Part shown: positions 4,681-64,000 of the stretch, in pieces
Layout of the letters: each line of letters starts with the position of its first letter
Position numbering within the stretch: position 1 is the first letter of the stretch
Origin: an uncultured Actinomycetota bacterium
GTDB lineage: Bacteria; Actinomycetota; Thermoleophilia; RBG-16-64-13
Assembly (NCBI GenBank): GCA_963790415.1
Contig: CAWBOK010000001.1
Location: 770,545 to 834,544, forward strand
Direction of reading: 5' to 3'
DNA length: 64,000 nucleotides
Program-made: the position numbers and the translations under genes
Notes under the pieces: model-generated
Told to the model about the DNA's origin: nothing
Databases searched by the model: none
What the model saw: the letters and a program-made list of their open reading frames with translations, nothing else

Positions 4681-4738
4681 GGCCGTTTGTGATCGTGAAA
4701 TAGAGCGAACGCCTCGGCGAACGTCACGGACATGTCTT

Positions 4739-4775
4739 GGGGGTGGGTCGACGCCGACCCACCCCCATCCTTTTC
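4739..4775 (+). terminator. rho-independent terminator
   Basis: Perfect 12-bp stem GGGGGTGGGTCG/CGACCCACCCCC with a 4-nt loop, followed by the T-rich tract atccttttc. Confidence 0.7.
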
Positions 4776-4900
4776 AGACCGCTATCGTTGGCCTTCTCCG
4801 CGGGTTGGCCTTTGCGGCGCTTCCGTTCTCACATCCCATTCCCCACTTAGAACTCAGGAGCTGTGACCGGAAACGGGCACACCCGCACCGCAGAGCCGCG

Positions 4901-5611
4901 TCAAGACAACCCGACCAGCTGCGCTTCGAGGTCGCGCACACGTCGCCCCATGACAACGGTGATCTCGCGCATCAGGTGGTAGCCGAGAACGGGATCGGCT
5001 TCGCACAGGGACTCGAGCTCCACCTTCCCCAGCACCGCCACCTCGCTGTCCACCATGGCGTGACCGGTTGCCGTGTAGTGGAAGGGAGGTACCGCGCCGG
5101 ACCAGGCAAACAGTTCACCCGGACGGACCGTATCGACCAGCACATGGCGACCGGACCCTGCTTCGACCAGGAGACCCACCCGCCCGGAGAGCAAGACACA
5201 GAGACCGAAGGCCTCGTCGCCCTCCCTCATGACAAGGTCGCACGCCCGGTACCGCCGGATCTCCGCGTGCTTGACCAATGCCGCTCGATCAGCCTCGAGA
5301 AGGTAGCGCAAGCCACCCGTACCGAGAAGGTTCCCCTCATCCGGGGGCTCTGCAGCCGGCGTTGCCGAGGGTGGCGTCGCGATGGCGGGCGTCGCGGTAG
5401 GCTGCGTCGAAGGGGGCGCGGGAACAGGAGGCGACGGGCCCGGGCCAACCGCACGCGCCGCCAACGCGCCGGCGGCTGTGGTTCCCGGCACAGAGCCAGA
5501 CACCGCCTGACCTGCGAGTGACGCCCGGGAGGCGCGGCGCGAAGAGAGCGCCCAGTAGATGAATAGCACGGCGAATATGGGGAATACGACGGCCATCGTG
5601 ATCACCTCCAC
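4901..5611 (-). CDS. membrane-anchored cyclic-nucleotide-binding domain protein
   Basis: 236 aa. N-terminal TM (VVFPIFAVLFIYWAL), Ala/Pro linker, and a cNMP-binding fold (YRACDLVMREGDEAFGLCVLLSGRVGLLV...RPGELFAWS). Confidence 0.7.
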   Translation of the reverse strand: MEVITMAVVFPIFAVLFIYWALSSRRASRASLAGQAVSGSVPGTTAAGALAARAVGPGPSPPVPAPPSTQPTATPAIATPPSATPAAEPPDEGNLLGTGGLRYLLEADRAALVKHAEIRRYRACDLVMREGDEAFGLCVLLSGRVGLLVEAGSGRHVLVDTVRPGELFAWSGAVPPFHYTATGHAMVDSEVAVLGKVELESLCEADPVLGYHLMREITVVMGRRVRDLEAQLVGLS

Positions 5612-5766
5612 GTCTGCGTGGAATCACACGGCCGAGCGTTGCGCCCGTACTATCGAGGAGCCAGGGGCGCGCTCGACATAGCCGCCAGTGTCGGTGCCAA
5701 GACCACGGTCGAGATGGGCACCCCGACCACCTACGGGTTTCCTGTCACCGTTGCGCCGGCACTTAT

Positions 5767-6127
5767 CTATAAATAGTATAGGCGTGTTGGGTTGTCGACG
5801 CAACCACTACCTTGCCGTCGCGGGCGGCCGAGGGAGATCAGCACCTCGGAGCCGAGCTCCATCACGCCCACCTCGATGGGCGGATAGTCCCCGTGGAGCC
5901 AAACCTTGGTCAGGTCGAACGGGTGGAACTGACACAGTATCGAGCGAGATGGTCGGCACGCGGTCCCGCACGCCACGATAGATCGCTTCCACGTCGGGAT
6001 GGGTGTCGCTGCCGGCGATCTCCCTGGCGACTTCCAGTCGCTGATGCGTCAGGCGCAGGCCGCTCTTGCGCAATGCTTGAGAGAACAGGGAGACGCGGCG
6101 CTCAACTTCGCTCTCTGGGATGGACAC
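5767..6127 (-). pseudogene. Fur-family regulator, apparently frameshifted/truncated
   Basis: GTG start. The winged-helix part [47 protein letters not shown] is intact. A plausible continuation ([17 protein letters not shown]) sits in the +1 frame (ORF 5767..5976). No HHH or CxxC metal-site motifs were found. Confidence 0.45.
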
Positions 6128-9029: not shown

Positions 9030-10379
9030 CTACTGCACTACCACGGTCCCCGTCATCGAGGGGTGGATGCCGCAGTGGTACGGCACCGTCCCAGCAGCGG
9101 CGAACGTGAACTGGAACGATTCGCCCGGCGCCACGCTGCCGCTGTCGAACGAGCCGTCGTCGGCCACGATGGTATGGGCCGTCGTGTCCTCGTTGACCCA
9201 GGTCACGGTGTCCCCGGCATTCACCGTGATAGACGCCGGGTCGAAGGCAAGGTTGATGATGGTGACCTGGTCCACGACCGTTGTCGAGGTGGTCGCCGAC
9301 TCAGACGTGGTGGTAGTCGCCGGAGCCTCAGTCGTTGTGGTGGTCGCCGGAGCCTCGGTCGTGGGGGTGGCTGTGGTCGGCGGGGCTGTGGTCGGCGGGG
9401 CTGTCGTCGGAGGCGCCGTGCTCACCGGAGCGGTGCTGCCGTCCGATACCACCACGGCGACGCTCTCACCAGGAGCCACGGAGGTCCCCGCAGCCGGCGA
9501 CTGCGCGACGACCTCGCCCTGGGGCGCACTCGAGGCCGTAGTGCTGGCGGTGCCGGTCAATCCCAAGGCTGCCAGCATGTCTTCAGCCACGTTCTGCTGC
9601 ATGCCCACGAGGTTGGGGACCGCGACGGTGTCCGTGGGTGGTCCCTGGCTCAGTGTCAACGCGACACCGGAGCCTATGTTGGCCTGCGTGCCCCCGACGG
9701 GATCCTGCGCCAGTACGGTGCCTCGGGGCTCGGTGCTCTGTTCCCCTTTGACTCCGCTGATCATGAACCCGGCGGCCTCGAGGGCGTTGACGGCCGGCAA
9801 CGGCAACTGGCCCACCACGTCGGGCACGGTTGCAACAGGGACGTTAGTCGACAGCAGTACGCTCAGCTGGTCGCCCTTCTCAACCGCGGTGCCCGAGGTC
9901 GGATACTGAATCGTGACCAGGCCGGGCGCCACCGCGGTCGTGAACTGGATCCCGCGGACGACGTAAACCATACCTGCTTTCTCAGCCTCAGTCTTGGCCT
10001 GAGCGCTCGAGAGTCCGACGACGGACGGCACGCTGACCCCGCGCGTCAGCACCACGGCAAGGATAGCTACGATGGCCACGACAACGACTGCCACAACCAC
10101 CCAGAACCAGGTACGTTTCCAGAAGGGCTTATCTCCACCCGCCGGGCCGGTTGACATGCCCGTGAATCCGACGCCCGCTCCACCCGCGCCCGTGCCACCT
10201 GTCCCTGGCCCCCCGGGGCTCTTTCCCGGCGGGCGGACAGCCGTGACGTCGGGACCCAATTCAGCACTCGATGCGGCCGCGCCGGCGGCGACCGCCGCGC
10301 CCGCGGCAACAGGAAGCCCGCATTCCTCGCAGGCCTCACTCCCCTCACTGATCGGTGTTCCGCAATTAGCGCATTCCAT
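9030..10379 (-). CDS. zinc-ribbon / TM / 3x PASTA / cupredoxin (type-1 copper) membrane protein
   Basis: ATG at 10379 after GGGAGGA. Domains in order: zinc ribbon MECANCGTPISEGSEACEECG; TM WFWVVVAVVVVAIVAILAVVL; three PASTA-like repeats (VPSVVGLS.., VPDVVGQL.., VPNLVGMQ..); Thr/Pro linker; C-terminal VTWVNEDTTAHT...YHCGIHPSMTG (H, C-x2-H-x2-M ligand pattern). Confidence 0.75.
   Translation of the reverse strand: MECANCGTPISEGSEACEECGLPVAAGAAVAAGAAASSAELGPDVTAVRPPGKSPGGPGTGGTGAGGAGVGFTGMSTGPAGGDKPFWKRTWFWVVVAVVVVAIVAILAVVLTRGVSVPSVVGLSSAQAKTEAEKAGMVYVVRGIQFTTAVAPGLVTIQYPTSGTAVEKGDQLSVLLSTNVPVATVPDVVGQLPLPAVNALEAAGFMISGVKGEQSTEPRGTVLAQDPVGGTQANIGSGVALTLSQGPPTDTVAVPNLVGMQQNVAEDMLAALGLTGTASTTASSAPQGEVVAQSPAAGTSVAPGESVAVVVSDGSTAPVSTAPPTTAPPTTAPPTTATPTTEAPATTTTTEAPATTTTSESATTSTTVVDQVTIINLAFDPASITVNAGDTVTWVNEDTTAHTIVADDGSFDSGSVAPGESFQFTFAAAGTVPYHCGIHPSMTGTVVVQ
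9307..9413 (-). repeat. in-frame tandem repeats encoding the Thr/Pro linker
   Basis: A 27-nt unit occurs twice (9307-9333, 9334-9360; 24/27 identical). A 15-nt unit GGCTGTGGTCGGCGG occurs three times (9369-9413). Together they encode PTTAPPTTAPPTTA... and EAPATTTT repeats. Confidence 0.6.
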
Positions 10380-16894: not shown

Positions 16895-19126
16895 ATGTCA
16901 TCGCAGTCATTTCTCGAATCCCTTGCCCGGCGGTGCGGCGCCCATCCCTGGCGCACGCTGTCTGCTTGGGCGGTGGCGTTGGTCGTCGCCGTGGCGCTGA
17001 CCGTGACGTTGCTCGGCGGCGCCCTCACCAGCGATGGCGCCGCGACCAACAACCCCGAGTCCGATCGGGCAGACAAGCTGATCAGCGCACGGCTCCACAC
17101 TGAGGACACCATCAACGAACTGGTCGTGCTGAAATCGACGGAGCGCACCGTGGACGACCCCGTCTTCCAGCAGCGCGCCAACGCCATGTTGGCCGCGGCC
17201 ATCGCGCTCGGACCCGACGTGGTCAAGGGGGGCGCTACCTACACCATGGTGCCCGACCCGTCTTTGATCTCCCGTGACCGTCACGCCACGGTCGTACCAG
17301 TGTCGATGACCGGCAGCCAGAGCGAGATCGAGAAGAACGTCGACGAACTGTCGGCGGCCGTCAAGAAGGCGGGCCAGGGGAACGGCTTCGAGGTGCTCGT
17401 CACCGGCGGGCCCAGCATCAACCGAGACTTTACCCAGATCGGCGAGAGCGACCTGAAGAGCGGCGAGGTGTTCGGCGTAGGAGTGGCCCTGGTCATCCTC
17501 GTACTCGTATTCGGAGCGCTCGTGGCCGCCGGCATCCCCCTCCTACTGTCGGTGGTCTCCATCGTGATCGCCATGGGCATGGCCGCCGTCGCCGGGCAGT
17601 TCCTTGAGCTCAGCACGTTCATCACCAACATGATCACCATGATCGGTCTGGCGATGGGTATCGACTACTCTCTCTTCATCGTCTCCCGCTACCGCGAAGA
17701 GCGGGGCGCGGGCCGGCCCAAGCTCGATGCGATCGCCCGCACCGGCGGGACGGCCGGCCGGGCCGTGCTCTTCAGCGGGGGCTCGGTCATCGTGGCTCTC
17801 GGCGGTCTGCTGCTCGTGCCCATGAGCATCTTCCACAGCATGGCCCTGGGCGCGATGTTCGCGGTGATGGGCGCCATCCTCGCCGCCCTCACGCTGCTGC
17901 CCGCCCTGCTCGGGCTCCTTGGCGACCGGGTGAACAGCCTCCGCGTCCCCTTCCTCAAGAGCGCCCGCAACGACGGACACCCCGGAGAGACCGGCTTCTG
18001 GCATCGGATCGCCCACGGCGTGATGGCCCGCCCGGTCGTCAGCCTGACCGTCGCGTGCCTCGTGCTCCTGGTGGCGGGTAGCTTCTACTTCCAGCTGGAT
18101 GAAGGATCCGTCGGTGTCGACACCCTTCCCGCAGACAAAGAGTCTCGGCAGGCGTATGACCTCCTGTCCACGGACTTCCCCTCCTCCCTGATGGCCAACG
18201 TCCAGATCGCCGTGGACGGCGCCGCCGCCGATCCGGCCGTCAAGCAGGCGGTAGCCTCCCTCACGGCCGCCATCGAGGCGGACCCCGCCTTCGAGGGCGC
18301 CATCACCACCACGACCAGCCCGGCCGGTGACCTGACCGTGCTCACCTTCCCGCAGGCGTCCGGGCAGACCGACGAGCAGGCCCGGGGGGCCGTTGGGCGG
18401 CTGCGGACCCAGGTGATCCCGCAGGCCTTCGCCGGCGTCCCCGCCACCGCGCTCGTCACCGGACAGGCCGCCTACGGGGTCGACTATCTGGCCACCATCG
18501 ACCAGTACACTCCTTGGGTGTTCCTGTTCGTGCTGGGCCTCAGCTTTATCTTCCTCACCGCAGTCTTCCGGTCGCTCGTGGTGCCGCTGAAAGCCATCCT
18601 CATGAACCTGCTGTCAGTGGGCGCCGCCTACGGGCTCCTGGTGATCGTGTTCCAGAAGGGATGGGGCGCGGGGTTGCTCGGTCTACAGCAGGTGGACTAC
18701 ATCGAGGCATGGATCCCGCTCTTCCTGTTCGCGATCCTCTTCGGCACCTCCATGGACTACCACGTCTTCCTGCTCAGCCGCATCCGCGAGCGCTTCGACG
18801 ACGGACACAGCAACACCGACTCGGTCGCCTTCGGATTGGGATCGACCGCGAAGATCATCACCGGCGCGGCGATCATCATGGTGGCGGTGTTCAGTGGTTT
18901 CGCCTCCGGCAGTCTCGTCATGTTCCAGCAACTCGGGTTCGGGTTGGCGGTGGCCGTGCTCCTCGACGCCACCATCGTCCGCACCGTGCTCGTGCCGTCC
19001 GCCATGCGCCTGCTCGGCGATGCCAACTGGTGGCTGCCCAAACACCTCAACTGGCTGCCCGACCTGCGCGTGGAGCGTAGCACCCGGCCGAAGCCCACCA
19101 CTCCGGTGGTGAGTACCGATAGCTAG
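16895..19126 (+). CDS. MMPL-family (RND superfamily) membrane transporter
   Basis: About 743 aa. Two 6-TM blocks with the repeated GIDYSLFIVSRYREE / SMDYHVFLLSRIRE motifs. Confidence 0.85.
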   Translation: MSSQSFLESLARRCGAHPWRTLSAWAVALVVAVALTVTLLGGALTSDGAATNNPESDRADKLISARLHTEDTINELVVLKSTERTVDDPVFQQRANAMLAAAIALGPDVVKGGATYTMVPDPSLISRDRHATVVPVSMTGSQSEIEKNVDELSAAVKKAGQGNGFEVLVTGGPSINRDFTQIGESDLKSGEVFGVGVALVILVLVFGALVAAGIPLLLSVVSIVIAMGMAAVAGQFLELSTFITNMITMIGLAMGIDYSLFIVSRYREERGAGRPKLDAIARTGGTAGRAVLFSGGSVIVALGGLLLVPMSIFHSMALGAMFAVMGAILAALTLLPALLGLLGDRVNSLRVPFLKSARNDGHPGETGFWHRIAHGVMARPVVSLTVACLVLLVAGSFYFQLDEGSVGVDTLPADKESRQAYDLLSTDFPSSLMANVQIAVDGAAADPAVKQAVASLTAAIEADPAFEGAITTTTSPAGDLTVLTFPQASGQTDEQARGAVGRLRTQVIPQAFAGVPATALVTGQAAYGVDYLATIDQYTPWVFLFVLGLSFIFLTAVFRSLVVPLKAILMNLLSVGAAYGLLVIVFQKGWGAGLLGLQQVDYIEAWIPLFLFAILFGTSMDYHVFLLSRIRERFDDGHSNTDSVAFGLGSTAKIITGAAIIMVAVFSGFASGSLVMFQQLGFGLAVAVLLDATIVRTVLVPSAMRLLGDANWWLPKHLNWLPDLRVERSTRPKPTTPVVSTDS

Positions 19127-19154
19127 CAACCGCTGCGAGGGAGCATCGAAGCAG

Positions 19155-19184
19155 GGCGGGGCCTTCGCGGGCCCCGCCTTTTTT
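19155..19184 (+). terminator. rho-independent terminator
   Basis: GGCGGGGCC-ttcgcg-GGCCCCGCC followed by TTTTTT. Confidence 0.85.
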
Positions 19185-19230
19185 GGCGCTTCTCGGCCCG
19201 GCGCAAACGCGGACCGTCGTCAGTGAGCCG

Positions 19231-19845
19231 CTAGCACCCGGCTTTCGCCTCGGAAACAACGGCGGGGAATGCCAACGCCTCGACCAACACAAAGGCCGCC
19301 TGCAGTGCCGACGTCGGACAGAGGGGAAAGCACTCCTTGCAGTCCCAGCACTCTCGGGCCGCGATCTCGGGGACGAAGCTGATCTCCCGTCTTGCCCCTC
19401 TGTCGACGAAGCCGACGGCGTTCGCCTGCTTGACCTCGGCGCAGTACCGGACGCACAGGCCGCAGTGGATGCAGAAGGAGGCTTCTTTCTCGAAGCGGTC
19501 TCTGTCTGCTTCATACGTCTGCGCGAGGTCCTGCAACACCAAAGAATCCGGCGCGTGGGCCAGCAACAGCTCCAGGATCATCTTGCGGATCCTGTCGATC
19601 TTCTCCGATCTGGTCCGTACGACCAGGCCGTTCTCCACAGGGTAGACGCAGGCGGCGACGAGCCGCGGCCAACCGCGCACCTCCACCTCGACGGTGCAGA
19701 GACGGCAGCCGCCGTGGGGATCCAGCTTCTCGTGGTAGCAGAGGGTCGGAATCTCTATCCCGGCCTTCTGCGCCGCCTCGAGGATGGTCATCCCCTCGTG
19801 CGCCTCGACCTCTCTTCCGTCGATCTGCAGCGTAGTCCCGCTCAT
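19231..19845 (-). CDS. bamI: 2Fe-2S/4Fe-4S protein, NuoG N-terminal-like (BamI-like)
   Basis: 204 aa and intact. [49 protein letters not shown] plus [11 protein letters not shown] and [12 protein letters not shown] motifs. Last gene of the cluster. Confidence 0.7.
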
Positions 19846-21781
19846 GTCTCTTGCTCTTTCTGACGACGGTTCTTTCGTCTTCGGGGAGGGGAGGCGGAAC
19901 GGGCTCGCCGGAGAGCTTCTTCACGGCACCATAGCGGGCGGGGCAGACTTCGAAGCACGTGCCGCACTTCGTGCACTTCTCCTGATCGATCACGTGGATC
20001 ACGTTCCTGTCGCCCTCGATCGCCTCGGCGGGGCAGTTCTTGGCGCAGAGCATGCAGCCCCGGCAACTGCCGGGTCGATGTAGTACGCGATCAGCTCCTT
20101 GCAGGACGAGGGCCGGGCACCGCTTCTCGTTGATGTGCGCCTCGTACTCGTCTCTGAAGTAGCGGAGCGTGCTCAGGAACGGGTTGGGGGCGCTCTTGCC
20201 GAGAGCGCAGAGGGAGGCCTCCTTGGCCACCTCGGACAGTTCCTCCAGGAGCTCGATGTCGCCCTCCCTGCCCCTGCCCTTGGTGATGTCGGTCAGGATC
20301 TTGAGCATCTGCCGCAGGCCCTCGCGGCAGGGGACGCACTTGCCGCACGACTCGTCGGTGAGGAAGTCGATGAAGTACCTGGCGACATCGACCATGCAGG
20401 TGTCTTCGTCCATGACGATCATCCCGCCGGAGCCCATCATCGAGCCGGCCGCGGTGAGCTCGTCGAAGCCGACCTCCAGGTCCAGCATCTCCTCGGGGAT
20501 GCACCCGCCCGACGGTCCCCCGGTCTGCACGGCCTTGAACTTCTTGCCGCCGGGGATGCCGCCGCCGATGTCGTAGATGATCTCCCTGAGCGTCATCCCC
20601 ATGGGCACTTCCACCAGGCCGGTGTTGGTGATCTTGCCGACCAGGGAGAAGATCTTCGTGCCCTTGCTCTTCTCGGTTCCGATCTTGGCGAACCAGTCGG
20701 CGCCCTCGTTGATGATCAGCGGGACGTTGGCCCAGGTCTCGACGTTGTTCAGTACGCTGGGCCTGTCCCACACACCCTTGACGGCCGTGTGGATGTACTT
20801 CGACCGCGGCTCTCCCACCCTGCCTTCCAAGGCCGTCATCAAAGCGCTGGACTCGCCGCACACGAAGGCGCCGGCCCCTTGGTGCACCGTGACGGCGAAG
20901 TCGAAGCCGGAGCCCAGGATGTTCTTGCCGAGAAGACCGTACTCCTCGGCCTTCCGGATGGCGATGTGGACGTTCTCCACCGCCAGCGGGTACTCCTGGC
21001 GCACGTAGATGTAGCCCTCGTGGGCGCCGATGGCGTAGGCGCCGATGGTCAGCCCCTCGAGCACGGAGTGAGGGTTCCCTTCCAGAAGGCTCCGGTCCAT
21101 GTAGGCGCCGGGGTCCCCCTCGTCGGCGTTGACGATCACGTACTTCGTCTCTCCCGGAGCGTTGCGGGCCTCTTCCCACTTCCTGCCCGCGGGGAAGCCG
21201 CCGCCGCCCCTGCCCCTCAGAGTCGGACTTCTTGACTTCCTCCAACACGCCGTTCGGCGGTCATCGTGGAGAGGGCCTTGGCCAGCGCCCGAGTAGCCAC
21301 CGATCGCCAGGTAGTCGTCGATGTCTCTTTGGATCGATGCTTCCGTTGGCGCCGAAGACGAGGCGCTCCTGGTGCTTGTAGAACGGGATCTCGCCCTCCC
21401 GCTCGATCCGTCTCGCCGGTGGCGGGGTCCACGTAGAGCAGACGCTCGACGACCTGCTTGTCCTGCAGCGTCTGGGAGACGATCTCGGGGACATCCTCGG
21501 GCTCGATCTGCAGGTAGCAGACTTCCTCGGGATGCATGACGACGATCGGGCCGCTCTCGCAGAACCCGTGACAACCGGTCTTTCGGATGTCCACTTCGTC
21601 GCTCAAGCCCCTGCTCCTGCGAGCTCCTCCTCGAGACGCGGCGGCGACCTCCGCGCTCCCAGAAGCGTGGCACGCGGACCCCGAGCAGAGCGTGACGCAG
21701 GGCCTCTTCGGGTCCCTCTTGGACAGGAGGTCGCTCCTGAATTCCTCCAGCTGCGGCGGGTGATTCGATCCGGGGCATCAT
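19842..21781 (-). pseudogene. bamH: NuoF/HydB-like flavoprotein with thioredoxin-like 2Fe-2S N-domain (BamH-like), multiply frame-disrupted
   Basis: The N-terminal 190 aa must be read across 6 successive +1 shifts (near 21757, 21412, 21328, 21288, 21254, 21222) to recover [90 protein letters not shown]. The rest is open and carries NADH/FMN/FeS motifs. There is a compensated frameshift pair at 20064-20112. The zero frame has no stop before 19511; a TGA overlapping the bamI ATG exists only in another frame. Confidence 0.75.
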
Positions 21782-21786
21782 TCGTC

Positions 21787-22261
21787 CTAAGTCGTAGTTC
21801 TTCAGCACGTCCGCGGTGCCGGCCGGCGTCGATCTTGCCGTGCGGCCTGCCGTCGACCTCCATGACCGGCCCCAGAGCGCAGCAGCCGAGGCAGTTGACG
21901 GTCTCCAGGCTGAACTTCAGGTCCAGGTCCGTCTCGCCCGGCATGATCCCGGTCAGGTCCTGCACCGAGTCGAGGACCCGGTCGGCCCCCCGAACATGGC
22001 AGGCCGTACCCATGCAGACGTGGATCTCGTGACGCCCCTTGGGCACCAGGCTGAACGCCTTGTAGAAGGTGGCGATGTGCTGGACGCGCGTCATAGGGCA
22101 CGTGCAGCCTCTCGCTCACCCGCTCCAGGACCTCCCTGGGCAGCCAGTGCTTCTCGGCTTGGATCTCCAGCAGTATCTGGATGAGCGCGCTTGCGTCCGC
22201 ATCGATACCTGTCGATGATCTGCTCGAGTCGGTCGTCACTCACGGTCGTTGCCTGCACCAT
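21787..22261 (-). pseudogene. bamG: NuoE-like thioredoxin-type 2Fe-2S protein (BamG-like), frame-disrupted
   Basis: ATG at 22261 after GGAAGGAAG. Pieces MVQATTVSDDRLEQIIDRY / DASALIQILLEIQAEKHWLPREVLERVSERLHVP / VQHIATFYKAFSLVPKGRHEIHVCMGTACHVRG...[16 protein letters not shown] / ADVLKNYD lie in successive +1 frames (shifts near 22200, 22095, 21833). The 3' end is uncertain. Confidence 0.7.
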
Positions 22262-22976
22262 CTTCCTTCCCCTCACCCACAGCCCGCTCTTGCGCCCTAG
22301 GCCAGAGCGAAGCGCTTGCGGCTCTCGTCGTACCTGACCAATCCCTGCCGTGACGCACTGTTGATCTGCTTCGCCACGTCCGACGGCTTCGACGCCCAGG
22401 CGCTCAGACAGCTCTCCCGTGGAGAGGGGGCTGTCTCCGAGGAGCGAGACGATCTGGCTCAAGGTCAGCTGCTCTCCGATCAGGTCGTCGAAGAGGCGGT
22501 CGAACTCGTCGCTGGCGAAGAACTCCTCGTACGCGGTCTGCGACTTGACGGGCACCCTCAGCCTCTCCCGTTCCACCAGCTTGATGTAGGGGATCAACCT
22601 CGTGGCCGCCTCGAGCTTGAACTTCAGCGTCATCGTCATCGATGCCCTCGCCCTCGCCCAGAGGTCCCAGCTGTTTCACGTGTGAGGAGAAGTCGTTCAT
22701 CACTTCCGCGAAGCGGATACCTTCGGACGACGACAACCATTCGAGCCGCAACCTATCGGGGTTCAACCCGATGTGTTCCAGAAGCTTCTTGCATATGTGC
22801 ATCATGCTCAAGGCATCGTAGTTGCCTTCGGTTATGTAGTGACATTCGCCCAGCCAGCACCCACCGACGAACACCCCGTCATTGCCATTCGAGAAGGCCC
22901 GGAGTACGAAGGCCAGATCGATCCTTCCGGTGCACATAAGTCGGACGATCCTGATGTCAGAAGCATATTGTAGTCT

Positions 22977-23009
22977 GGAAACTCCAGCCAAGTCCGCGGC
23001 GGAGTATCC
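22977..23009 (-). promoter_or_regulatory. candidate bacterial SECIS hairpin
   Basis: Starts directly after the UGA: GGAUACUCC-GCC-[GCGGACUU]-GGC-U-GGAGUUUCC. About 12 bp with one U.U mismatch and one bulge. The apical loop starts with G, 12 nt after the UGA. Confidence 0.4.
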
Positions 23010-23012
23010 TCA
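23010..23012 (-). other. in-frame TGA, probable selenocysteine codon
   Basis: Codon 19 of the MvhD-like gene, in the context C-N-W-TGA-G-Y-S. Cys-type homologs have C-N-W-C at this position. Confidence 0.65.
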
Positions 23013-23103
23013 CCAGTTACACAAGAACCCGAGGATCCTCGGCTTGAACTCGATTCCCGTACTCATCTCGACCTCCTTTCTGTGGTAGTGATCGCCGGTC
23101 CTT

Positions 23104-26100
23104 TCAGCAGACGACTTCCGCGAGGGCCGGAACCGCCGCGTCGATCTGGAGCATGATCTCCTCGTCGGTGTAGTGCTTCAGATAGATGGCCGCCGTGGGG
23201 CACTTGGCGTTGCAGAGGCCGTCGCCTTTGCAGAGCACGGGGTTGACCACGGCCTTCTTGCCGTGCTGGGTGTCGTGCAACTCGATGGCGCCATAGGTGC
23301 AGGCTGAGATGCAGGCGCCGCAGGCGACGCAATCCTCCTCCTTCACCTCGCACACCGAGCCCGACGCGGTGACGGTGTCGTGCGAGAGAAGGGTGATGGC
23401 CCGGCCGGCGGCACCGTAGGCCTGGCTGATCGTCTCCGAGAGGTGCTTGGGATAGTGGGCCGTGCCGCACAGGAAGATCCCGTCGGCGGCGAAGTCCACC
23501 GGCCGCAGCTTCACGTGGGCTTCCTGGAAGAAGCCGTCGGGGCTCAACGACACCTTGAACAAGCCGGGACATCTCGAGCGTCCCCCGCGACGAGACGACG
23601 GCCGCCGACAGCGCGAGCGCGTCGGCGTCGATGGCGATCCTCTGCCCCAGGATCGGATCGGTCACGGCGACCCTCAGGACGCGCCGACCGTCTTCGTCGA
23701 CGGCCTCCACCACCGGCTTGTCCTCGGGCTCGTAGCGGATGAAGCGCACGCCCCGCTCCGACGCCTCGCGGTAGTAGTCCTCACGGAAGCCGTAGGTGCG
23801 CATGTCCCGGAAGAGGACGTAGATGTCCATCTCGGGGTTGATCTCTTTGAGCTTCAGCGCGTTCTTGATGGCCTGGCTGCAGCAGATCCGGGCGCAGTAG
23901 TTCCGGTCCGGCTGCCGGCAGCCGACACACTGGATCATCACCATGCTCTGGGCGTCGGTCAGCCACTCCGCCCCGTCGGCGATCTGCTCCTCCAGCTCGA
24001 GCTGGGTCACGACCCGCTCGCCGGTGCCGTAGGAGTACTCGGTGGGCGTGTATTCCTCGGCGCCGGTGGCGAGGATGGCCGCTCCGTGGAGGATCTGCCT
24101 GACCCTGCCTTCGGACTGCACCGTCGTGACGAAGTTGCCCACGTAGCCGGAGACGTCGGTGATCGTGGCGTCTGTGGAGACGTGGACCAGCGGGTGGCGA
24201 TACACCTTGCGCACGAGCTCGCTCAGGAAGGCCTGGATGTCGAGCCCTTCCAGCGTGTGGCGGAGCCTCCGCGCCATGCCCCCCAGGTCCGATTCCTTCT
24301 CGACCAGGTAGACCTCGAAACCCTGCTCGGCCATGCTGAGGGCGCTGGTCATGCCGGCCACGCCCCCACCGACCACCAGCGCCGTCTTGTTGACGGGCAG
24401 CTCGAACTCCTCGAGCGGCTCCAGGAGGCGAGGTACGCGCCACCGACATCCGCACGATGTCCTTCGCCTTCTGGGTGGCCAGCTCCTTCTCGCGGCTGTG
24501 CACCCACGAGCAGTGCTCGCGGATGTTGGCCATGTCGAAGAAGTACTGGTTGATGCCGCCTTCGCGCAGCGTGTCCCGGAACAGCGGCTCGTGCGTTCTC
24601 GGGGTGCAGGCAGCCACGACCACGCGGTTGAGACCCTTCTCACGGATGGTGTTCGCTATCTGCGCGGCCGCGTCGGTGGAACAGATGAACAGTCCCTCTT
24701 CCGCGTGAACGACATTGTCCAAGGTCAGGGAGTAGTCGACCACCCCGGGCACGTCGACCACGCGGCCGATGTTGGAACCGCAGTGGCACACGAAGACGCC
24801 GACCCGGGTCTCCTCCTCGGAGACATCCCTCTCCACCGGGTAGACCCGATCCTTGGCCAGCCTACCCCGGCGGTAGTCGAGGAGTTGACCGCATTGCGAG
24901 CCGGCCCCGCTGGCCGACATCACCGACTCCGGGATGTCGATGGGTCCCTGGAAGGCCCCGCTGATGAAGACGCCGGGGCGGGAGGTCTCCATGGGGTTCA
25001 CCGGGTTGGTCTTGCAGAATCCGTACGAGTTGAGCTCGATGCCGAATGTCCTGGCGAAGTCCTGGGCATCGGACGGCGGGCTCATGCCCACCGAGAGCAC
25101 CACCATGTCGAACTCTTCCTCCACCACCCCGTCCGCGTCGGTGGCGTAGCGGACGGTGACGTTCTTCGTCTCGGGGATCTCTCTGCCGATGGAGACGTAG
25201 CTCCGGATGAACCGCACCCCGGGAAGCCTCTCCGCCCGCTGATAGAAGCGCTCGAAGTCCTTGCCGTACGACCGGATATCGTTGTGGAAGATGGTGGCCT
25301 TGGCGTCGGCGTCGTGATCCTTGGTCAGGATCACCTGCTTCTGAGTGTACGAGCAGCAGACCGCCGAGCAGTAGGTGTTGGCGCCCGGGATGACCTGCCG
25401 AGAGCCGACGCAGTGGATCCAGGCGATGTTGTGAGGATGCCGCTTGTTCGAGGGCCGCAGGATCTCGCCCTCGAACGGCCCGGTGGAACACAGCAGCCGC
25501 TCGTAGTCGAGACTGGTTACGACGTTCTCCATCGTCCCGTAGCCGTAGTCGCCCCTCAGTCCCGGGATCGAACACCTCGTAGCCCGGGGACAGGACGATG
25601 GCTCCCACGTTTAGCTCGATCTTCTCTGCCTTCTGATTGAGATCGATCGCGTCGTTCTTGCACACGCCCTCGCAGATGGCGCACTTCTTGTCCTGCAGAT
25701 ACCGGCAGCTGTCGTCGATGTACGTGACCAGCGGGACGGCCTGCGAGAAGTAGATGTGGACGGCCTTGTTGTCGGACAGCTCCTGGTTGTACGGATCGGG
25801 GATCTTGACCGGGCAGTACTCGACGCACGTGCCGCACCCCGTGCACTTGTCCTCGATGATGCGCCGGGGCTTCTTCGTGAGCGTGACCGTGAAGTCTCCG
25901 GCCTCTCCTTCGACGCTGTCGACTTCCGTGTAGGTGAGTATCTCGATGTTGGGGTGTCGGTCGCACTCGATGAACTTCGGCGATTCGATGCACATGGAGC
26001 AGTCGTTGGTGGGAAAGGTCTTGTCGAGCTGAGACATCTTGCCGCCGATGGTCGGCAGCTTCTCGACCAAGTAGACCTTGAAGCCCGAGGTGGCAAGGTC

Positions 26101-26223
26101 CAGGGCGGCCTGAATGCCGCTGATCCCACCACCGACCACCATGACGTCGCCGAAGTTGCCCGGCATGGGGCTCGCTATGACGTCCAGGTGAGAGAGTGCG
26201 TTGTGAAACGGTGCGTTATCCAC
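23104..26223 (-). pseudogene. bamE: large double HdrA-like FAD/FeS protein with ferredoxin inserts (BamE-like), three frame disruptions
   Basis: GTG start. Four pieces in successive +1 frames (shifts near 25548, 24433, 23563): VMVVGGGISGIQAALDLA...GYEVFDPG / LRGDYGYGTMENVVTSLDYERLL...IHCVGSRQ...AKDIVRMSVARTS / LLEPLEEFELPVNKTALVVGGGVAGMTSAL...IQCVGCRQ / LFKVSLSPDGFFQEAH...CVACGACISAC...CKGDGLCNAKCP. Confidence 0.8.
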
Positions 26224-26275
26224 TTCGTTCTATCCTCATCGGGTTGTCGCCGTCTCCAACTACCGTCGCCGTTTC

Positions 26276-27427
26276 CTAGACAACTGCTCGGACGATCTCG
26301 GTGATGTCCTTGATCTCGACGGCGTCGCTGTCTTCGCGGTTCATCCGGCTGTCTTCGAAGTTGGTGATGCAGTAGGGACAGGACGTGACCAGCACGTCGG
26401 CTCCCGCCTCGACCGCCTGATCGAGGCGGAGGTCGGAGAACCGTTCTCCCTTCACCGTCTCCATCCAGATCCTGCCGCCCCCGCCCCCGCAACAGAGACT
26501 GTCCACCCGCGTGTCCGGCATCTCGGCGAGCTCCAGCCCAGGTATCCTCTCGAGGATCTCCCGGGGCTCGTCGTACACGCCGTTGTGGCGTCCCAGGTAG
26601 CACGGGTCGTGGTACGTCACCGTCTTCGCGTACTCCTCCTTCAACTCCAGCCTGCCGTCGGCCATCAGTTGGAGAAGGAACTGCGACATGCTGACGACCT
26701 CGAAGTCCACCCGGAACTCCGTGTACTCGTTCTTGAACGCGTGGTAACAGTGCGGGGACGAGACCAGGATCTTCTTGACCCCATGGTCGATGAAGGTCTT
26801 GATGTTCTCCCTGGCCAGGCGCTTGAACAGGTCCTCGTTGCCCGTCTTGCGGATGCTCTCCCCGCAGCAGTTCTCGGCGGCGCCGAGGATCCCGAAATCG
26901 ACCCCGGCCTGCTTGAGCAACTCCGCCGTAGCTCTGGCCACCTTCTTCAAGCGCGGATCGTAGGCGAGATAGCAGCACGGGAAGTAGAGGTACTCCATGC
27001 CCTCCTTGAACGCCTTTACCCCGAGCCCCTCGGTCCACTTGGTCCGGTCTTCGCGCTTCTCGTTCAGCGGGTTCCCTTCGCTCTGGAGACTCGCGCTGAT
27101 CGTGCGGATAGGCTGCACGTGCTTGGGGAACACCTTGTACTCGGTGGCCATCCTGCGCAGCGCCACAGCATCCTCTATCTGCTGCACGTCCCGGGGGCAC
27201 CGCTGAGGGCATCTGCCGCAGGTAGTGCAGCGCCAGATGTCTTCGGTCTCGATGTCGGTCATGCCGAAGGTGGCCTCGCGAATGACCTTGCGCATACTGA
27301 AGTTCGTGACTCTATTCCAAGGGCACACGGTGTCGCACAAGCCGCATTGATAGCAGCGCTTGACCTGTTCGCCGCCGCTGTCCTTTATGACATCGACGAT
27401 CTCCCTATAGTCGGACAGATTCTCCAC
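26276..27427 (-). CDS. bamD: HdrD-type FeS/CCG-domain oxidoreductase (BamD-like)
   Basis: 383 aa and intact. CYQCGLCDTVCP and CTTCGRCPQRCP ferredoxin motifs, plus two CCG motifs (YFPCCY..NCCG; YHDPCYLGR..CCGGGGG). Confidence 0.8.
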   Translation of the reverse strand: MENLSDYREIVDVIKDSGGEQVKRCYQCGLCDTVCPWNRVTNFSMRKVIREATFGMTDIETEDIWRCTTCGRCPQRCPRDVQQIEDAVALRRMATEYKVFPKHVQPIRTISASLQSEGNPLNEKREDRTKWTEGLGVKAFKEGMEYLYFPCCYLAYDPRLKKVARATAELLKQAGVDFGILGAAENCCGESIRKTGNEDLFKRLARENIKTFIDHGVKKILVSSPHCYHAFKNEYTEFRVDFEVVSMSQFLLQLMADGRLELKEEYAKTVTYHDPCYLGRHNGVYDEPREILERIPGLELAEMPDTRVDSLCCGGGGGRIWMETVKGERFSDLRLDQAVEAGADVLVTSCPYCITNFEDSRMNREDSDAVEIKDITEIVRAVV

Positions 27428-27462
27428 TCTGTATCTACACTCTCTTCTTTCGCGGCGGTGGT

Positions 27463-28014
27463 TTAGCTCTTGATGGACATTCTGGCAACAGTCTCCACGA
27501 GCTTCTGGAGTCCGTACTTGTCCACCAGGGAATCCAGTCCCACCTCGAGTTCACCGCGCTTCTCTTCCTTCACGGATTCCCGGTCGTCCTCGCGTTCGAT
27601 GTACGTCAGCGCATCGCAGCGACAGACCTGGACACACCAGGGCTCCGTGAGAGTCTCATCTTCCTCGCACATATCGCACTTCAGAGGGAGGCCGGAGTCG
27701 GGCTCTTTGAAGTAGTCCCGCGCCGGGCAGGAAACCCCACAGAAGCTGCACTCGGAGTACTCTTTTCCTTCGATCGTGTAGATGTGTCTGCCCGTGCACT
27801 CGGCCTTCGTGTAGTCGCCCGCACGTATCGGGACGTAGACGTCTTTCAACTCGTCCAGCACGACGCGGATGCGCGACCTCGCCGGGTTCGTGCTGCTGAA
27901 TCTCGGATGGGCGTGGAACGCGGAACAGGCCAGTTCGCACGCGCGGCAGCCGATGCACTTGTCGATATCGACTTTGATTTCCTTGATCATGTTCGTCTTG
28001 GCGTCATCAGTCAC
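27463..28014 (-). CDS. bamC: multi-[4Fe-4S] ferredoxin-like subunit (BamC-like)
   Basis: 183 aa and intact. CIGCRACELAC, CSFCGVSCP and CDMCEED...CVQVCRCDA cysteine clusters. Sits immediately downstream of the AOR-family gene. Confidence 0.75.
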   Translation of the reverse strand: MTDDAKTNMIKEIKVDIDKCIGCRACELACSAFHAHPRFSSTNPARSRIRVVLDELKDVYVPIRAGDYTKAECTGRHIYTIEGKEYSECSFCGVSCPARDYFKEPDSGLPLKCDMCEEDETLTEPWCVQVCRCDALTYIEREDDRESVKEEKRGELEVGLDSLVDKYGLQKLVETVARMSIKS

Positions 28015-28044
28015 GACACATAACCCTTCACTCGCGCACCCCTC

Positions 28045-29991
28045 CTACCCCGCCACGGTCGCCGTCGCAGCCGCGCCCGCATCCGCGGTCAGGATGCCCC
28101 GCCGGACGAAATCGTCGCTCACGTAGCCCAGGCCCAACGAATCCAGCGTCGTCTTTCGTGGGAATGCCGTCGTTCGTCCACCCCTTGAACTCGTAGTAGG
28201 CGTCGAGCAGCTTCTCTTCGTTCTCCGGTTCCCGCTTCTTCCAATGGTCGGCGGGCGGCTTCTCGTCGACCCGCCGCATGCCCCTGCGGATGTTGAGGGC
28301 CCGTACCAGAGTTGCGGTTGCGTCGCCCGATCTCCCAGAGAGAGGTGTCGTCGAGATCGAACCCGGTCGCATGCGAGATGAACCCGGGCAGGTTGTAGAC
28401 GTGGTACGGCGGCCGGCCACCGAATTGACCCCTGAACGACGACAGGAACGCGCACGTGCCTATGGCGTCGTCGATGTAGTGCATGGTCTCGTTCCAGTCG
28501 GCGATGTTGACCGCCGCCTCAAAAGACTGGTGGGTGCGTGGTTCCCAATCCAGGTACCACTTCTTGAACTTCTCCGGAGCCGCGTCCCACCGGTCGACGA
28601 ACCGCTGTCTCTCTTCCTTGTCGGCGATGGGGATCTGGGGATACGACCCTTCGGTCTGGGTGATGTTCATCTTCTCGCCGGTGGCGTACATGAGGAAGTA
28701 CGGGTAGTTGACCGTGCCCAGCTTGATGGGCACCTGCTCGAACTTCTTCATGGTGTTGTGATCGAACGCCTCGGCGCCCTTGCCGATCTGGCGGGCAGCC
28801 CAGTAGACACCGTTCGCCAGGATGTCGCCGATGCCCTCCCGGCGAACGATCTTCTCGACCAGGTAGAAGAAACGCCCCGCCGTGTCGGGTGGGAATCCCG
28901 GCACGTCGTCGTCGGTGAGGATGCCGGCTTCGTACAACTCGACTGCGAAGGCGAGGAGCTGGGGCGTGGTGAACCCGTCAAGCCCGTATTCCTGGGTGAG
29001 GCTGAGCATGCTGTAGTTGAAGTCCAGTTCCTCATATGCCGCCATGGCATATGTCAGCTTGCTGTAGCACTTGAGCTGGAATATCTGGCGTCCCGGGTAG
29101 CGGATGCCGACATGGCAGTCCTTCGGACAGTTGTAGCAGCCCGTCCACCGCACCTCGTACTTGCGGGTGGTCTCCTCCCACTCCTTGGCGCGCTCCTCGG
29201 TCCATACACCCCTCACGCGATCGCGGGCGTTGCCCCAGGCGAAGTTGTCGACGTGCCACGTCTCGTCGTGCTCGTGCCGGAAGATGCACCCGCAGTCCGG
29301 GTTGTCGTAGATCTCCTTGTACTGCGCGTTGCAGATCTCGAAGAGCTCCGCGGGCCGAGCGACGTTGATGTCCTTCGTGCCTCGAACGGCGATCGCCTTC
29401 AGCCGTTTGTCGCCCATGATCACACCGACGCCCCGGGAGGCGCTGGAGTTGGAGTGCTCGATGGAAGACATGTAGACGCGGTTCTCGCCGGCCAGGCCGA
29501 TGGCCGCCACCTGGGCCTCGGGCTGCTTCAACTCCTCCTTGATCAGCGCGCCGGTCTCTATCGCGCCCTTGCCCCGGAGATGCGTGGCGTCACGGATCTC
29601 TATCTTGTCGTTGTGGATCCACAGATAGACCAGATCGTCCGCCTTACCGCGGATCACGATCTTGTCGAAGCCGGCATGCTTGAGTTCCGGCCCGAAGAAT
29701 CCGCCGAAGATGGAATGCGAATACAGGTTGGTCTGCGGCAGAGAAGGTGTCGACACAGGTACGATTGGCGCCGGGGACGGGCGTGCCATGCAGGATACCC
29801 GTGCTGAAGATGAGCAGATTGTCGGGCGAGAAGGGTTCGACGTCGGGGCCGACCCTGTCCCACAGTATCTTCGCGGCCGTGCCCTGGCCCCCCAAGTGCA
29901 GCGCGGTCAACCTCGGGTCGGTCTCTACCCTCTCGAGGCTTCCTCGGGACAGATCGACCTCCAGGTTGAACCCTGTCTCTGCGTACCTCAT
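28045..29991 (-). pseudogene. bamB: tungsten-pterin aldehyde:ferredoxin-oxidoreductase-family subunit (BamB-like), three frame disruptions
   Basis: ATG at 29991. MRYAETGFNLEVDLSRGSLERVETDPRL...GTPVPGANRTCVDTFS / PQTNLYSHSIFGGFFGPELKHAGFDKIVIRGK...(about 520 aa).../ TLVRALNIRRGMRRVDEKPPADHWKK...GWTNDGIPTK / TTLDSLGLGYVSDDFVRRGIL. +1 shifts near 29743, 28311 and 28153. N- and C-terminal strings closely resemble BamB as I recall it. Confidence 0.8.
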
Positions 29992-30013
29992 ATGCTTTCC
30001 CCTTCGAGATCAC

Positions 30014-30039
30014 CTGCTGAACACGAGGATCTGCTGAAC
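30014..30039 (-). promoter_or_regulatory. direct repeats in the bamB leader
   Basis: CTGCTGAAC at 30014-30022 and 30031-30039 on the plus strand (GTTCAGCAG on the coding strand), 23-48 nt upstream of the bamB ATG. An AT-rich tract lies at 30071-30099. Confidence 0.3.
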
Positions 30040-30136
30040 CGCACTGACGGACCCTCGGCGAGACCGTTCCGATAATTAACTGACTGACCAACCAATAACG
30101 CGAGCAGCGTACCACACCGACCGACGAGGCGCCAGC

Positions 30137-43070: not shown

Positions 43071-43720
43071 GATGTTCCACCCAGCAACCGCACGTGCGCC
43101 TCCACCGGTTCTCCCGCGTTGACGGGGAGGAGGTCCTGAGGGCATGCGGAGAAAACCAAGACGCAATCGCACTCGGCCCTGAGAGTGACGTAGTCACCCG
43201 GCGCGGAGACCGGGGCTCGGAACTCGAGACGTCGTCCGTCGACCGCCGGTGTGTTCATGAAGAGGTTCCAGGGGCTCGGGGTCTCCGGCACTGTGAGACC
43301 GATCTCGGCCAGAGCGGCGGCCAGGTTGTCGGTGCAGTTCTCGTGGTGCGTGGTGCAGCCGAGCTGCTCGTAGCGGTACCGGTCGCACGCCGCGATCAGG
43401 GTGTCGTGAACGCCGGGTGACGAGTCCTCCAGCAGTGTGATGATCGGACGCCGGCGATTGGTCACGAGGCTCTGGCCCACACTGACGGACAGACTGAAGA
43501 GCGCGGCCCGAGTATGCTCCATGGACATGTGCTCGGTCAGATCCGGGTCGCAGAAGGCCCAGGTGTCCACGACCTGATGACCATGCGTGTTGATGACCTG
43601 CAGCGCTCGGCCCGAGCGGAGGCGGATCGCCAGACCCCGCCGCGCCGGGATCGTCAGCAAGCCGGTCTCAGGCACAGTGACTCTCCTTTGTTCGAGCGGC
43701 CGATATGGCCTCCGCAGCAC
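43055..43720 (-). CDS. DUF1989 (urea-carboxylase-associated) family protein
   Basis: 221 aa. LQVINTHGHQVVDTWAF...HMSMEHTR...CTDNLAAALAE...NLFMNTP...GDYVTLRAECDCVLVFSACPQD. Confidence 0.7.
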   Translation of the reverse strand: MLRRPYRPLEQRRVTVPETGLLTIPARRGLAIRLRSGRALQVINTHGHQVVDTWAFCDPDLTEHMSMEHTRAALFSLSVSVGQSLVTNRRRPIITLLEDSSPGVHDTLIAACDRYRYEQLGCTTHHENCTDNLAAALAEIGLTVPETPSPWNLFMNTPAVDGRRLEFRAPVSAPGDYVTLRAECDCVLVFSACPQDLLPVNAGEPVEAHVRLLGGTSCAWE

Positions 43721-59029: not shown

Positions 59030-59820
59030 TCGACCGCCGTTCTAAGCCGGGCGAGCAGAACCGAAGCTCGGTCGACCGCCTCCCCCCCGAGTCGATCCCC
59101 CACCGCTTGCAGTAGCGCGCTGCCCACGATAACGCCGTCCGAGACCGCCGCGAAGCTGCGGGCGCCCACCTCGCCCGCTACGCCGAAGCCCACGAGCGCG
59201 GGCAGGTCGGTGTGCCGACGCACCCGGGCGACCGTGCGGGCAGCCGGGGCGGTGCGTCTCGTCTCGCCGCCGGTCACTCCGTCGACAGAGGCGCAGTACA
59301 CGAACCCGCTGCACCTGTCGACGATGGTAGGGATCATGCGCTCGGGTGTTCCGGGCGTCACCAGAACGACCATCTCCAGACCAGCCGCGGTCACGGACGC
59401 CACGAATGCGTCTGCACCCTCCGGAGCGAGTTCGGCGACCAACATGCCGTCGATACCTGCCTCCGCGGCCGCGCTGCACAGACCCGCCGTCCCGAAAGCG
59501 TGAACCGGCTCGGAGTAGGTCATGAGGAGAAGCGGCACACGAAGCCCTCGCGCGCGGCAGCCCGCGACACACTCGAACAGCGAGGTGACGGTGGCGCCCG
59601 CGGCCAGAGCCAGATGCGACGCACGCCTGATCACCGGTCCGTCGGCCGCCGGGTCCGAGAACGGGAGGCCCACCTCCACGACGTCGGCCCCGGCCGCCTC
59701 GGCGGCGAAGAGCAGGCCCTCGAACGTGTCAACATCTGGATAGCCGAACATCAGAAAGACCACCAACGCCTTGCCACCCCGCGAGCGCTTCTCCCGCAGC
59801 GCGGCCTCGATGCGGCTCAC
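58966..59820 (-). CDS. trpA: tryptophan synthase alpha chain
   Basis: 284 aa. VEVGLPFSDPAADGPVIRRA and VGFGV motifs. The start overlaps the trpC stop. Confidence 0.9.
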   Translation of the reverse strand: MSRIEAALREKRSRGGKALVVFLMFGYPDVDTFEGLLFAAEAAGADVVEVGLPFSDPAADGPVIRRASHLALAAGATVTSLFECVAGCRARGLRVPLLLMTYSEPVHAFGTAGLCSAAAEAGIDGMLVAELAPEGADAFVASVTAAGLEMVVLVTPGTPERMIPTIVDRCSGFVYCASVDGVTGGETRRTAPAARTVARVRRHTDLPALVGFGVAGEVGARSFAAVSDGVIVGSALLQAVGDRLGGEAVDRASVLLARLRTAVDQVSATSSFASNDMSSAGSNP

Positions 59821-63992: not shown

Positions 63993-64000
63993 GTGTACCT

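Follow-up and report, generated by a model that had tools for sequence, protein, structure and literature searches.

In strict anaerobes, class II benzoyl-CoA reductase is the key enzyme for degrading aromatic compounds, and its bamB gene serves as an environmental marker. The closest described system is the Bam[(BC)2DEFGHI]2 complex of Geobacter metallireducens, encoded by Gmet_2087-2080. Parts of it recur in other systems. In the class IV WorLSABC tungsten oxidoreductases (WORs) and in HydABC-type enzymes, WorL/S are similar to BamB/C, and both WorC/B/A and HydC/B with the HydA N-terminus are similar to BamG/H/I. In the heterodisulfide reductase (Hdr) complex HdrABC-MvhAGD of methanogens, HdrA, HdrBC and MvhD are homologous to BamE, BamD and BamF, respectively, and the logic of flavin-based bifurcation is shared. 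Here we analyzed a stretch of 64,000 nucleotides from contig CAWBOK010000001.1 (hereafter the window), and found a cluster of eight genes on its minus strand, from 29991 to 19231. We consider it likely that this cluster is a bamBCDEFGHI operon for a class II (ATP-independent, tungsten- and selenium-dependent) benzoyl-CoA reductase in a Thermoleophilia-related uncultured high-GC actinobacterium. The system itself is a known one. What is added here is a map of single-base indels with the argument that they are artefacts, a selenocysteine codon at position 19 of bamF with a SECIS-like (selenocysteine insertion sequence-like) hairpin, residue-level agreement with known structures, and the sharing of the cluster with actinobacterial metagenome-assembled genomes (MAGs).

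When proteins of the relatives were mapped onto the window by tblastn, the eight genes were found to be co-directional and in the order BamB-C-D-E-F-G-H-I, so that subunit types, order and orientation are the same as in G. metallireducens. The G+C content of the window is 60-70% throughout, and the coding signal is unbroken on the minus strand from 29991 to 19231, yet the frame switches repeatedly within single-gene stretches. Only bamC, bamD and bamI are intact as given, and bamB, bamE, bamF, bamG and bamH are each spread over two to several reading frames. The frames were therefore corrected by frameshift-aware protein-to-DNA alignment and by comparison of the gene ends with seven relatives. 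For bamH, a simple Viterbi model of third-position G+C and a greedy correction deleting one base at a time were inadequate, and a frameshift-aware protein-DNA dynamic programme was required. The corrected genes are as follows.

28045..29991, minus strand: bamB, tungsten-pterin catalytic subunit, 647 amino acids after correction (Pfam AFOR_N and AFOR_C; +1 insertions at about 29739, 28310 and 28150)
27463..28014, minus strand: bamC, electron-transfer subunit with three [4Fe-4S] clusters, 183 amino acids, intact open reading frame (match to 4z3w_E)
26276..27427, minus strand: bamD, HdrD/HdrBC-fusion-like, 383 amino acids, intact open reading frame (Pfam two Fer4 and two CCG; PDB matches HdrC and HdrB)
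23104..26223, minus strand: bamE, fused double-HdrA flavoprotein, 1038 amino acids after correction (Pyr_redox_2/FAD_oxidored twice and Fer4; +1 insertions at about 25566, 24428 and 23563)
22297..23066, minus strand: bamF, MvhD/FlpD-like adaptor, 255 amino acids, including a C-terminal extension of some 120 amino acids (Pfam FlpD at residues 11-134; +1 insertions at about 22631 and 22390)
21787..22261, minus strand: bamG, NuoE/HydC-like [2Fe-2S] subunit, about 157 amino acids (2Fe-2S_thioredx, 170 bits; +1 insertions at about 22201, 22098, 21830 and 21790-21795)
19842..21781, minus strand: bamH, NuoF/HydB-like subunit for flavin mononucleotide (FMN) and NAD, about 640 amino acids (Complex1_51K, NADH_4Fe-4S, SLBB, Fer4 and partial 2Fe-2S_thioredx)
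19231..19845, minus strand: bamI, similar to the NuoG N-terminus, with [2Fe-2S] and two [4Fe-4S] clusters, 204 amino acids, intact open reading frame (Fer2_4, Fer2, Fer4_7 and Fer4_Nqo3)

The corrected proteins show the expected Pfam architecture in all eight subunits. An earlier sequence-only reading had described this locus as a complete, co-directional eight-gene Bam set, and its gene order and direction are borne out exactly. The subunit types that it assigned agree with the Pfam domains after frame correction, the double-HdrA protein being 1038 amino acids long. All eight genes are indeed there, but the set is complete only once about 24 single-base indels are removed. The observation of the eight-gene set is thus confirmed, and its interpretation as a class II Bam gene set is supported.

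The identity of the catalytic subunit was examined by comparison with solved structures. Corrected BamB aligned over its full length (residues 1-635) with the G. metallireducens BamB structure 4z3w_A at 835 bits and 59.6% identity, whereas the best solved aldehyde:ferredoxin oxidoreductase (AOR), FOR or WOR reached 224 bits, leaving a gap of 611 bits. The uncorrected central fragment of bamB alone gave 563 bits to 4z3w_A, and its next best match was the Pyrococcus AOR with 157 bits. The N- and C-terminal strings that the sequence-only reading had quoted as typical of BamB align residue-for-residue with the G. metallireducens protein. At the level of single residues, Cys308 of the window protein (motif LKCYSKLTY) occupies the position of Cys322, and Glu240, His241, Glu243 and His246 align with Glu251, His255, Glu257 and His260. 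The Fe-S cysteines are conserved as Cys285, Cys288 and Cys292. A 2025 review (PMC12096430) describes Cys322 as a tungsten ligand of every BamB protein and of YdhV but of no other member of the AOR/WOR family, assigns Glu251, His255, Glu257 and His260 to the zinc site and proton conduit of BamB, and states that the second-shell ligands of AOR are missing from BamB. The BamC subunit matched 4z3w_E with 214 bits and 53.7% identity; it contains 13 Cys residues, 12 of which align with those of the three-cluster BamC of G. metallireducens. Based on the bit scores and the retained Cys322 ligand, the AOR-family subunit is assigned to the branch of the AOR/WOR family that contains BamB, as the sequence-only reading had predicted. 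Among 82 aligned BamB homologues, most have Asp at the position of His255, while the window protein and its closest relatives keep His. This is in conflict with the description of the Glu/His residues as invariant (the corresponding loop of the window protein comprises residues 222-246).

An ordinary aldehyde-oxidizing tungsten enzyme (a class IV WOR of the WorLSABC kind), or an Hdr/Flx-type system that resembles Bam, would be an alternative explanation of the locus. Public annotation of the homologues as 'aldehyde:ferredoxin oxidoreductase' or 'aldehyde dehydrogenase' fits this alternative, and so do the homology of BamGHI to WorABC and the similarity of BamE to HdrA. The tungsten-ligating Cys and the 611-bit gap to the best AOR speak against an aldehyde-oxidizing AOR or class IV WOR, and this candidate failed further in the curated families. 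Since NCBIfam has no Bam-specific models, it was usable only to ask whether another curated equivalog fits, and none did: the corrected Bam proteins stayed below every cut-off for Hdr, Nuo, Hox, Fdh and AOR equivalogs. Only the N-terminal third of BamB matched the AOR equivalog, at 217 bits, the cut-off being 868. Compared with WorLSABC, the window cluster adds the Hdr-like BamDEF module and carries Cys on the tungsten, and its substrate would be an aromatic compound rather than an aldehyde.

The Hdr side of this alternative is addressed by BamD and BamE. Structural comparison of BamD to BamI used the Hdr homologues in the PDB only, together with residue numbers from cryo-electron microscopy (cryo-EM) transferred via the copy in the Geobacter MAG L041. 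BamD is 89% identical to the BamD of the close relative L003 and 69% to that of L041. Its His226, Trp321 and Tyr352 would correspond to His230, Trp325 and Tyr356 of G. metallireducens, the triad that blocks the heterodisulfide pocket. BamE matched HdrA (5odc_A) with 617 bits over three stretches. By the L041 offsets, its CxxC at residues 75 and 78, Lys295 and Gln783 would correspond to Cys59/Cys62, Lys280 and Gln768 of G. metallireducens, Lys295 being the lysine of the bifurcating flavin adenine dinucleotide (FAD) and Gln783 the glutamine at the second FAD. An identity with HdrABC-MvhAGD was rejected, since the pocket residues His, Trp and Tyr are those of BamD, the HdrA part is duplicated and fused into one protein of 1038 amino acids rather than separate proteins of about 650, the Hdr cut-offs are not reached, and neither hydrogenase nor Flx genes were found in the window. 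Taking BamB, BamD and BamE together, we regard an aldehyde-oxidizing or Hdr/Flx-type system as highly improbable. The Hdr- and Nuo-like subunits show 61-72% identity to the BamD to BamI proteins encoded after BamB in a Geobacter MAG and 70-83% to their counterparts from Actinomycetota MAGs, which agrees with the assignment of these subunits to Bam by the sequence-only reading. Aside from its host, the actinobacterial BamD differs from the Geobacter MAG copy in one Cys more in the distal CCG motif: the final motif of the first CCG domain (residues 222-227) is SSPHC in the window and SSPHS in the Geobacter MAG. In G. metallireducens, the Cys-to-Ser change is reported to turn the distal BamD cluster into a modified [3Fe-4S] cluster (Appel et al., bioRxiv 10.64898/2026.04.10.717634), and the actinobacterial BamD may hold a different distal cluster.

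BamF resembles its G. metallireducens counterpart both in the C-terminal extension and in a selenocysteine codon. Residues 1-159 are 76% identical to a selenocysteine-containing paralogue of 255 amino acids in the Thermoleophilia MAG L001. Two features lie in the 5' part of the gene.

23010..23012, minus strand: in-frame TGA as bamF codon 19, interpreted as selenocysteine (context FLCNW*GYSAADLAG)
22975..22987, minus strand: hairpin CUGGAGUUUCCAG, similar to a selenocysteine insertion sequence (SECIS), which starts 25 nucleotides downstream of the UGA's first base and was seen in folds

Codon 19 is TGA in 37 of the 42 BamF homologues adjoining BamB, and is a Cys codon in the remaining five. 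The cryo-EM structure of the G. metallireducens complex contains selenocysteine at BamF position 19 (Appel et al.). Codons 27-31 (GCT GGA GTT TCC AGA) are near-invariant, including at synonymous sites, in the 37 TGA-bearing genes, and are varied in the five Cys-bearing ones. A search of Rfam gave no match for the hairpin. In the L001 locus of the Thermoleophilia MAG FR_37, two tandem BamF paralogues of 276 and 255 amino acids lie at 17138-18867, both with TGA at the selenocysteine position. Neither received a Pfam match from the gene caller, and the bamG of this MAG was left uncalled and is apparently frameshifted.

The NADH-side subunits also agree with their G. metallireducens counterparts. 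BamG, BamH and BamI are 70-81% identical to the copies in Actinomycetota MAGs and 71-72% to those in a Geobacter MAG. BamH is 78-80% identical to the BamH of L001, and BamI is 74% identical to that of L001 and 72% to that of L041. The N-terminal thioredoxin-like [2Fe-2S] domain of BamH and its C-terminal ferredoxin domain with two [4Fe-4S] clusters are present as in G. metallireducens, and Asp219 is conserved. At the end of bamG, the last insertion (21790-21795) masks a TAG stop codon; the relatives end in ...NYE* where the window reads TACGACTTAGG. A fusion of BamG with BamH was considered and excluded, since the relatives have a stop at this point, which the window regains when one base is deleted. 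In bamH, about ten insertions were located at 21754-21224 and at 20110, and two deletions at about 20068 and 19850-19855. Compared with the seven relatives, the TGA stop of bamH is out of frame through one missing base.

Several observations weigh against reading the locus as a working class II operon. First, five of the eight genes do not run in one uninterrupted frame in the sequence as given. Second, the indel density is patchy, with about 11 per 1 kb in bamG and 5' bamH and none in 2.75 kb of trp genes. Third, the Glu251-His255 spacing is shorter by three residues in the window than in the crystallized BamB. Fourth, BamB shares only some 60% of its residues with this sole crystallized BamB. 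Fifth, no genes for dch/had/oah, benzoate- or aryl-CoA ligase, electron transfer flavoprotein (ETF), tungstate uptake, molybdopterin synthesis or the selenocysteine machinery were found in the 64-kb window, nor were these pathway and cofactor genes found in the flanks of the actinobacterial relatives L001, L031 and L038.

The first two of these points would fit another explanation, a pseudogene cluster in decay, in which the indels are real frameshift mutations and the enzyme is no longer made. About 24 one-base indels (about 22 insertions and two deletions) break bamB, bamE, bamF, bamG and bamH, and are distributed as follows.

bamB, 3 insertions; bamC, none; bamD, none; bamE, 3 insertions
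bamF, 2 insertions; bamG, 4 insertions; bamH, about 10 insertions and 2 deletions; bamI, none

The close relative L003 lacks bamGHI altogether, showing that the module can be lost, which also fits decay. When the window was aligned as DNA with the relatives L004 (92% identical) and L003 (84%), extra single bases were seen directly at every frame change of bamB and bamE. Almost all indels of the bam genes are +1 insertions and lie mostly away from homopolymers, unlike the usual spectrum of natural frameshifts. One more +1 insertion is present at 30888 in the upstream kinase-like gene, and unrelated genes are broken in the same manner: an SDR gene at 52858 and 52558, whose single domain is stretched over three frames (52294-53024), an AlaX-like gene at 53563, and a PMT-like gene that is split. 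Further frame changes of the window were noted at 47958-48161, 2606 and 4428. In the trp region, trpG-trpD-trpC showed no indel over 2.75 kb against a contig of 95% identity.

The substitutions were then compared by codon position. The differences between bamB and its relatives fall on the three codon positions as 13:11:126, and bamD and bamE are alike, a roughly tenfold enrichment at third positions. Premature stops are absent from the corrected frames, as are larger deletions; moreover, the selenocysteine codon and the SECIS-like element of bamF are intact. These patterns indicate that the bam genes have been under purifying selection. Because +1 insertions also occur in unrelated genes, substitutions are biased to third positions and premature stops are absent, the indels are most likely sequencing or assembly errors and the operon intact in the organism, and the assembly behind the window seems to have been polished imperfectly, its error density being uneven. 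Against these data, a decaying relic appears quite improbable to us. Programmed frameshifting was also considered, and is excluded by too many sites, the lack of a common motif and the occurrence in unrelated genes. The insertions of the window are numerous enough to defeat ordinary gene callers.

The remaining points concern the substrate of the predicted reductase. They would agree with a genuine Bam-type bifurcating tungsten enzyme that has another substrate or role, such as a substituted aryl-CoA or another low-potential reduction, in which case the cluster would be no marker of benzoate or aromatic degradation in this lineage. The window cluster lies outside any aromatic-catabolism island and has no adjoining oah or bamA, unlike that of G. 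metallireducens, and downstream benzoyl-CoA genes are missing from both the window and the neighborhoods of the cluster in its actinobacterial relatives; pathway genes were likewise not found in the flanks of L009. However, such genes are scattered in G. metallireducens as well, so that their absence from the window is weak evidence. The moderate identity to the crystallized BamB also fits another role, given that G. metallireducens has a 66%-identical BamB2 of unassigned role; all 82 BamB homologues are 58-62% identical to the crystallized protein. The same holds for the short Glu/His loop, which is shared by nearly all 82 homologues including those of Syntrophus and Geobacter MAGs, and for the SSPHC form of the distal BamD motif. 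On the contrary, every residue lining or serving the benzoyl-CoA site that could be mapped is conserved. Window BamB is 71% identical to the copy of a Syntrophus aciditrophicus MAG and 77-79% to copies of Desulfobacterales with the same cluster, and these groups are sources of known class II reductase activity. Based on these observations, we consider another substrate or role unlikely, though less so than decay of the cluster, and retain benzoyl-CoA reduction as the probable function.

If the window complex works like that of G. metallireducens, to which it is homologous (Appel et al., bioRxiv 10.64898/2026.04.10.717634), its electron path can be proposed. Reduced ferredoxin and NADH would deliver electrons by confurcation to BamGH at a HydBC-like FMN site. 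Electrons would then pass via the BamI clusters and the ferredoxin domain of BamE to the BamF adaptor with its [2Fe-2S] cluster and selenocysteine 19, and from there to the bifurcating FAD of BamE. The low-potential electron would travel via the trio of [4Fe-4S] clusters in BamC to the [4Fe-4S] cluster and the tungsten-bis-metallopterin of BamB, where benzoyl-CoA would be reduced to cyclohexa-1,5-diene-1-carbonyl-CoA at the tungsten cofactor. BamD would pass the high-potential electron on to an acceptor; in Geobacter, this acceptor is ETF.

We then compared the window with its relatives. A protein search found intact BamB homologues of about 650 amino acids at 98%, 93%, 85% and 84% identity, the last one in a Thermoleophilia MAG on a 4.6-Mb contig. 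The closest sequences, L004 and L005 (98% BamB identity) and L003 (93%), come from the Joint Genome Institute (JGI) samples 3300063141, 3300063111 and 3300086344; their frames are intact, and at 92% (L004) and 84% (L003) DNA identity they would be species- or genus-level relatives. The closest named genome is the FR_37 MAG (GCA_027493445.1, JAOSKU010000001.1; L001/L007), in which BamB is 82-84% and BamC to BamI are 71-81% identical in the same order. It resembles the window in high GC content and belongs to the same BamB sub-clade, and differs from it in the two tandem selenocysteine-containing BamF, an upstream PadR regulator, other flanking genes and the annotation 'aldehyde dehydrogenase'. 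Since the closest named BamB (84%) and the closest named TrpD (76% identity) both belong to Thermoleophilia MAGs, the host appears to be related to Thermoleophilia.

Differences in gene content were observed among these relatives. The 11-kb sequence L003 (JGI 3300086344), compared with 18914-30042 and 43079-43674 of the window, carries bamBCDEF followed by an acetyltransferase and the region that lies beyond MMPL, with no bamGHI, and its BamF bears a C-terminal domain with two [4Fe-4S] clusters instead. Therefore the GHI module has been gained or lost among close relatives. A DUF1989 gene adjoins bamB in L003 and sits 13 kb away in the window. The Actinomycetes MAG SKS1.bin6 (L009) has a second AOR-family gene of 613 amino acids at 3990-5828, some 4 kb upstream of its BamB homologue. 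After many BamB homologues, BamC is found alone without BamD to BamI (L047-L054, L060, L067, L071, L074, L076 and others), and these loci resemble the BamB2/BamC2 pair of G. metallireducens.

In a scan of species-representative genomes (best match 85%), BamB was found in two MAGs labelled Thermoleophilia, two labelled Actinomycetes and two labelled Actinomycetota, and in many MAGs of Desulfobacterota, Geobacter, Syntrophus, Bacillota, Chloroflexota, Myxococcota and betaproteobacteria. The B-to-I order was observed in L001, L013, L027, L031, L037, L041 and L044. MAGs of Geobacter, Myxococcota, Bacillota and Actinomycetota have it beside BamB with subunit identities of 61-83%, and the full order is present in three actinobacterial MAGs (L007, L031 and L044). 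Because the same order recurs beside BamB homologues in many independent genomes, the arrangement is not due to chance. In a crude neighbor-joining tree without support values, the window sequence, L004, L003, an Actinomycetes MAG and FR_37 formed a high-GC clade beside two Desulfobacterota sequences, and other actinobacterial BamBs were placed elsewhere. In all, the BamBs of Actinomycetota occupy at least two or three positions in this tree, a pattern suggestive of multiple transfers. The literature searched contained nothing that joins bamB or class II benzoyl-CoA reductase with Thermoleophilia or Actinobacteriota. The earlier remark that such a system is not well documented in this lineage therefore seems to stand as far as papers are concerned, but public Actinomycetota MAGs do carry BamB, at least three of them with the eight-gene order.

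Based on these observations, we tentatively suggest that Thermoleophilia-like Actinomycetota may be unrecognized strictly anaerobic degraders of aromatic rings that use a horizontally acquired, bifurcating tungsten/selenium class II reductase, a possibility about which we remain somewhat doubtful. The position of the BamB clade as sister to Desulfobacterota copies, with actinobacterial BamBs in at least two or three places, would imply repeated acquisition. If true, a major soil and subsurface phylum would join the ATP-independent benzoyl-CoA dearomatizers, and should the operon work in these actinobacteria, bamB surveys and carbon-cycling models of anoxic soils and sediments should include the phylum. 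The public 'aldehyde oxidoreductase' labels on these genes need correction. In addition, the locus offers a distant high-GC complex to set against the Geobacter cryo-EM structure, with a shorter BamB loop, another BamD motif, and relatives with and without BamGHI.

Outside the bam genes, one further element was read from the sequence.

19155..19178, no strand assigned: perfect GC-rich hairpin GGCGGGGCC-N6-GGCCCCGCC lying between bamI and the convergent MMPL gene

This hairpin region is conserved in L003, and the hairpin is a probable bidirectional terminator. It is not among the sites given by the consensus terminator scan; scanning the bam cluster for sigma-70 promoters and intrinsic terminators gave nothing above the shuffled expectation. 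In the 64-kb window, there were no Rfam hits at gathering thresholds and no tRNA by ARAGORN. The flanking genes encode LCP (LytR_cpsA_psr), PASTA, MMPL, PMT_2/GT39-like and Ser/Thr kinase-like proteins together with trpE/G/D/C/A and trpF, so that all of the LCP, PASTA, MMPL, GT39 and trp neighbors named in the sequence-only reading are present. The order of the trp genes (minus strand, 59022-64000) is trpE-trpG-trpD-trpC-trpA, with no trpB between trpC and trpA, and trpF is on the plus strand at 55215-55830, 3 kb from the trp run; the same layout is found in the relative L086. On the minus strand at 9031-10176, a membrane-anchored protein combines three PASTA domains, a Thr/Pro-rich linker and a C-terminal cupredoxin/plastocyanin-like copper-binding domain, which is an unusual pairing.

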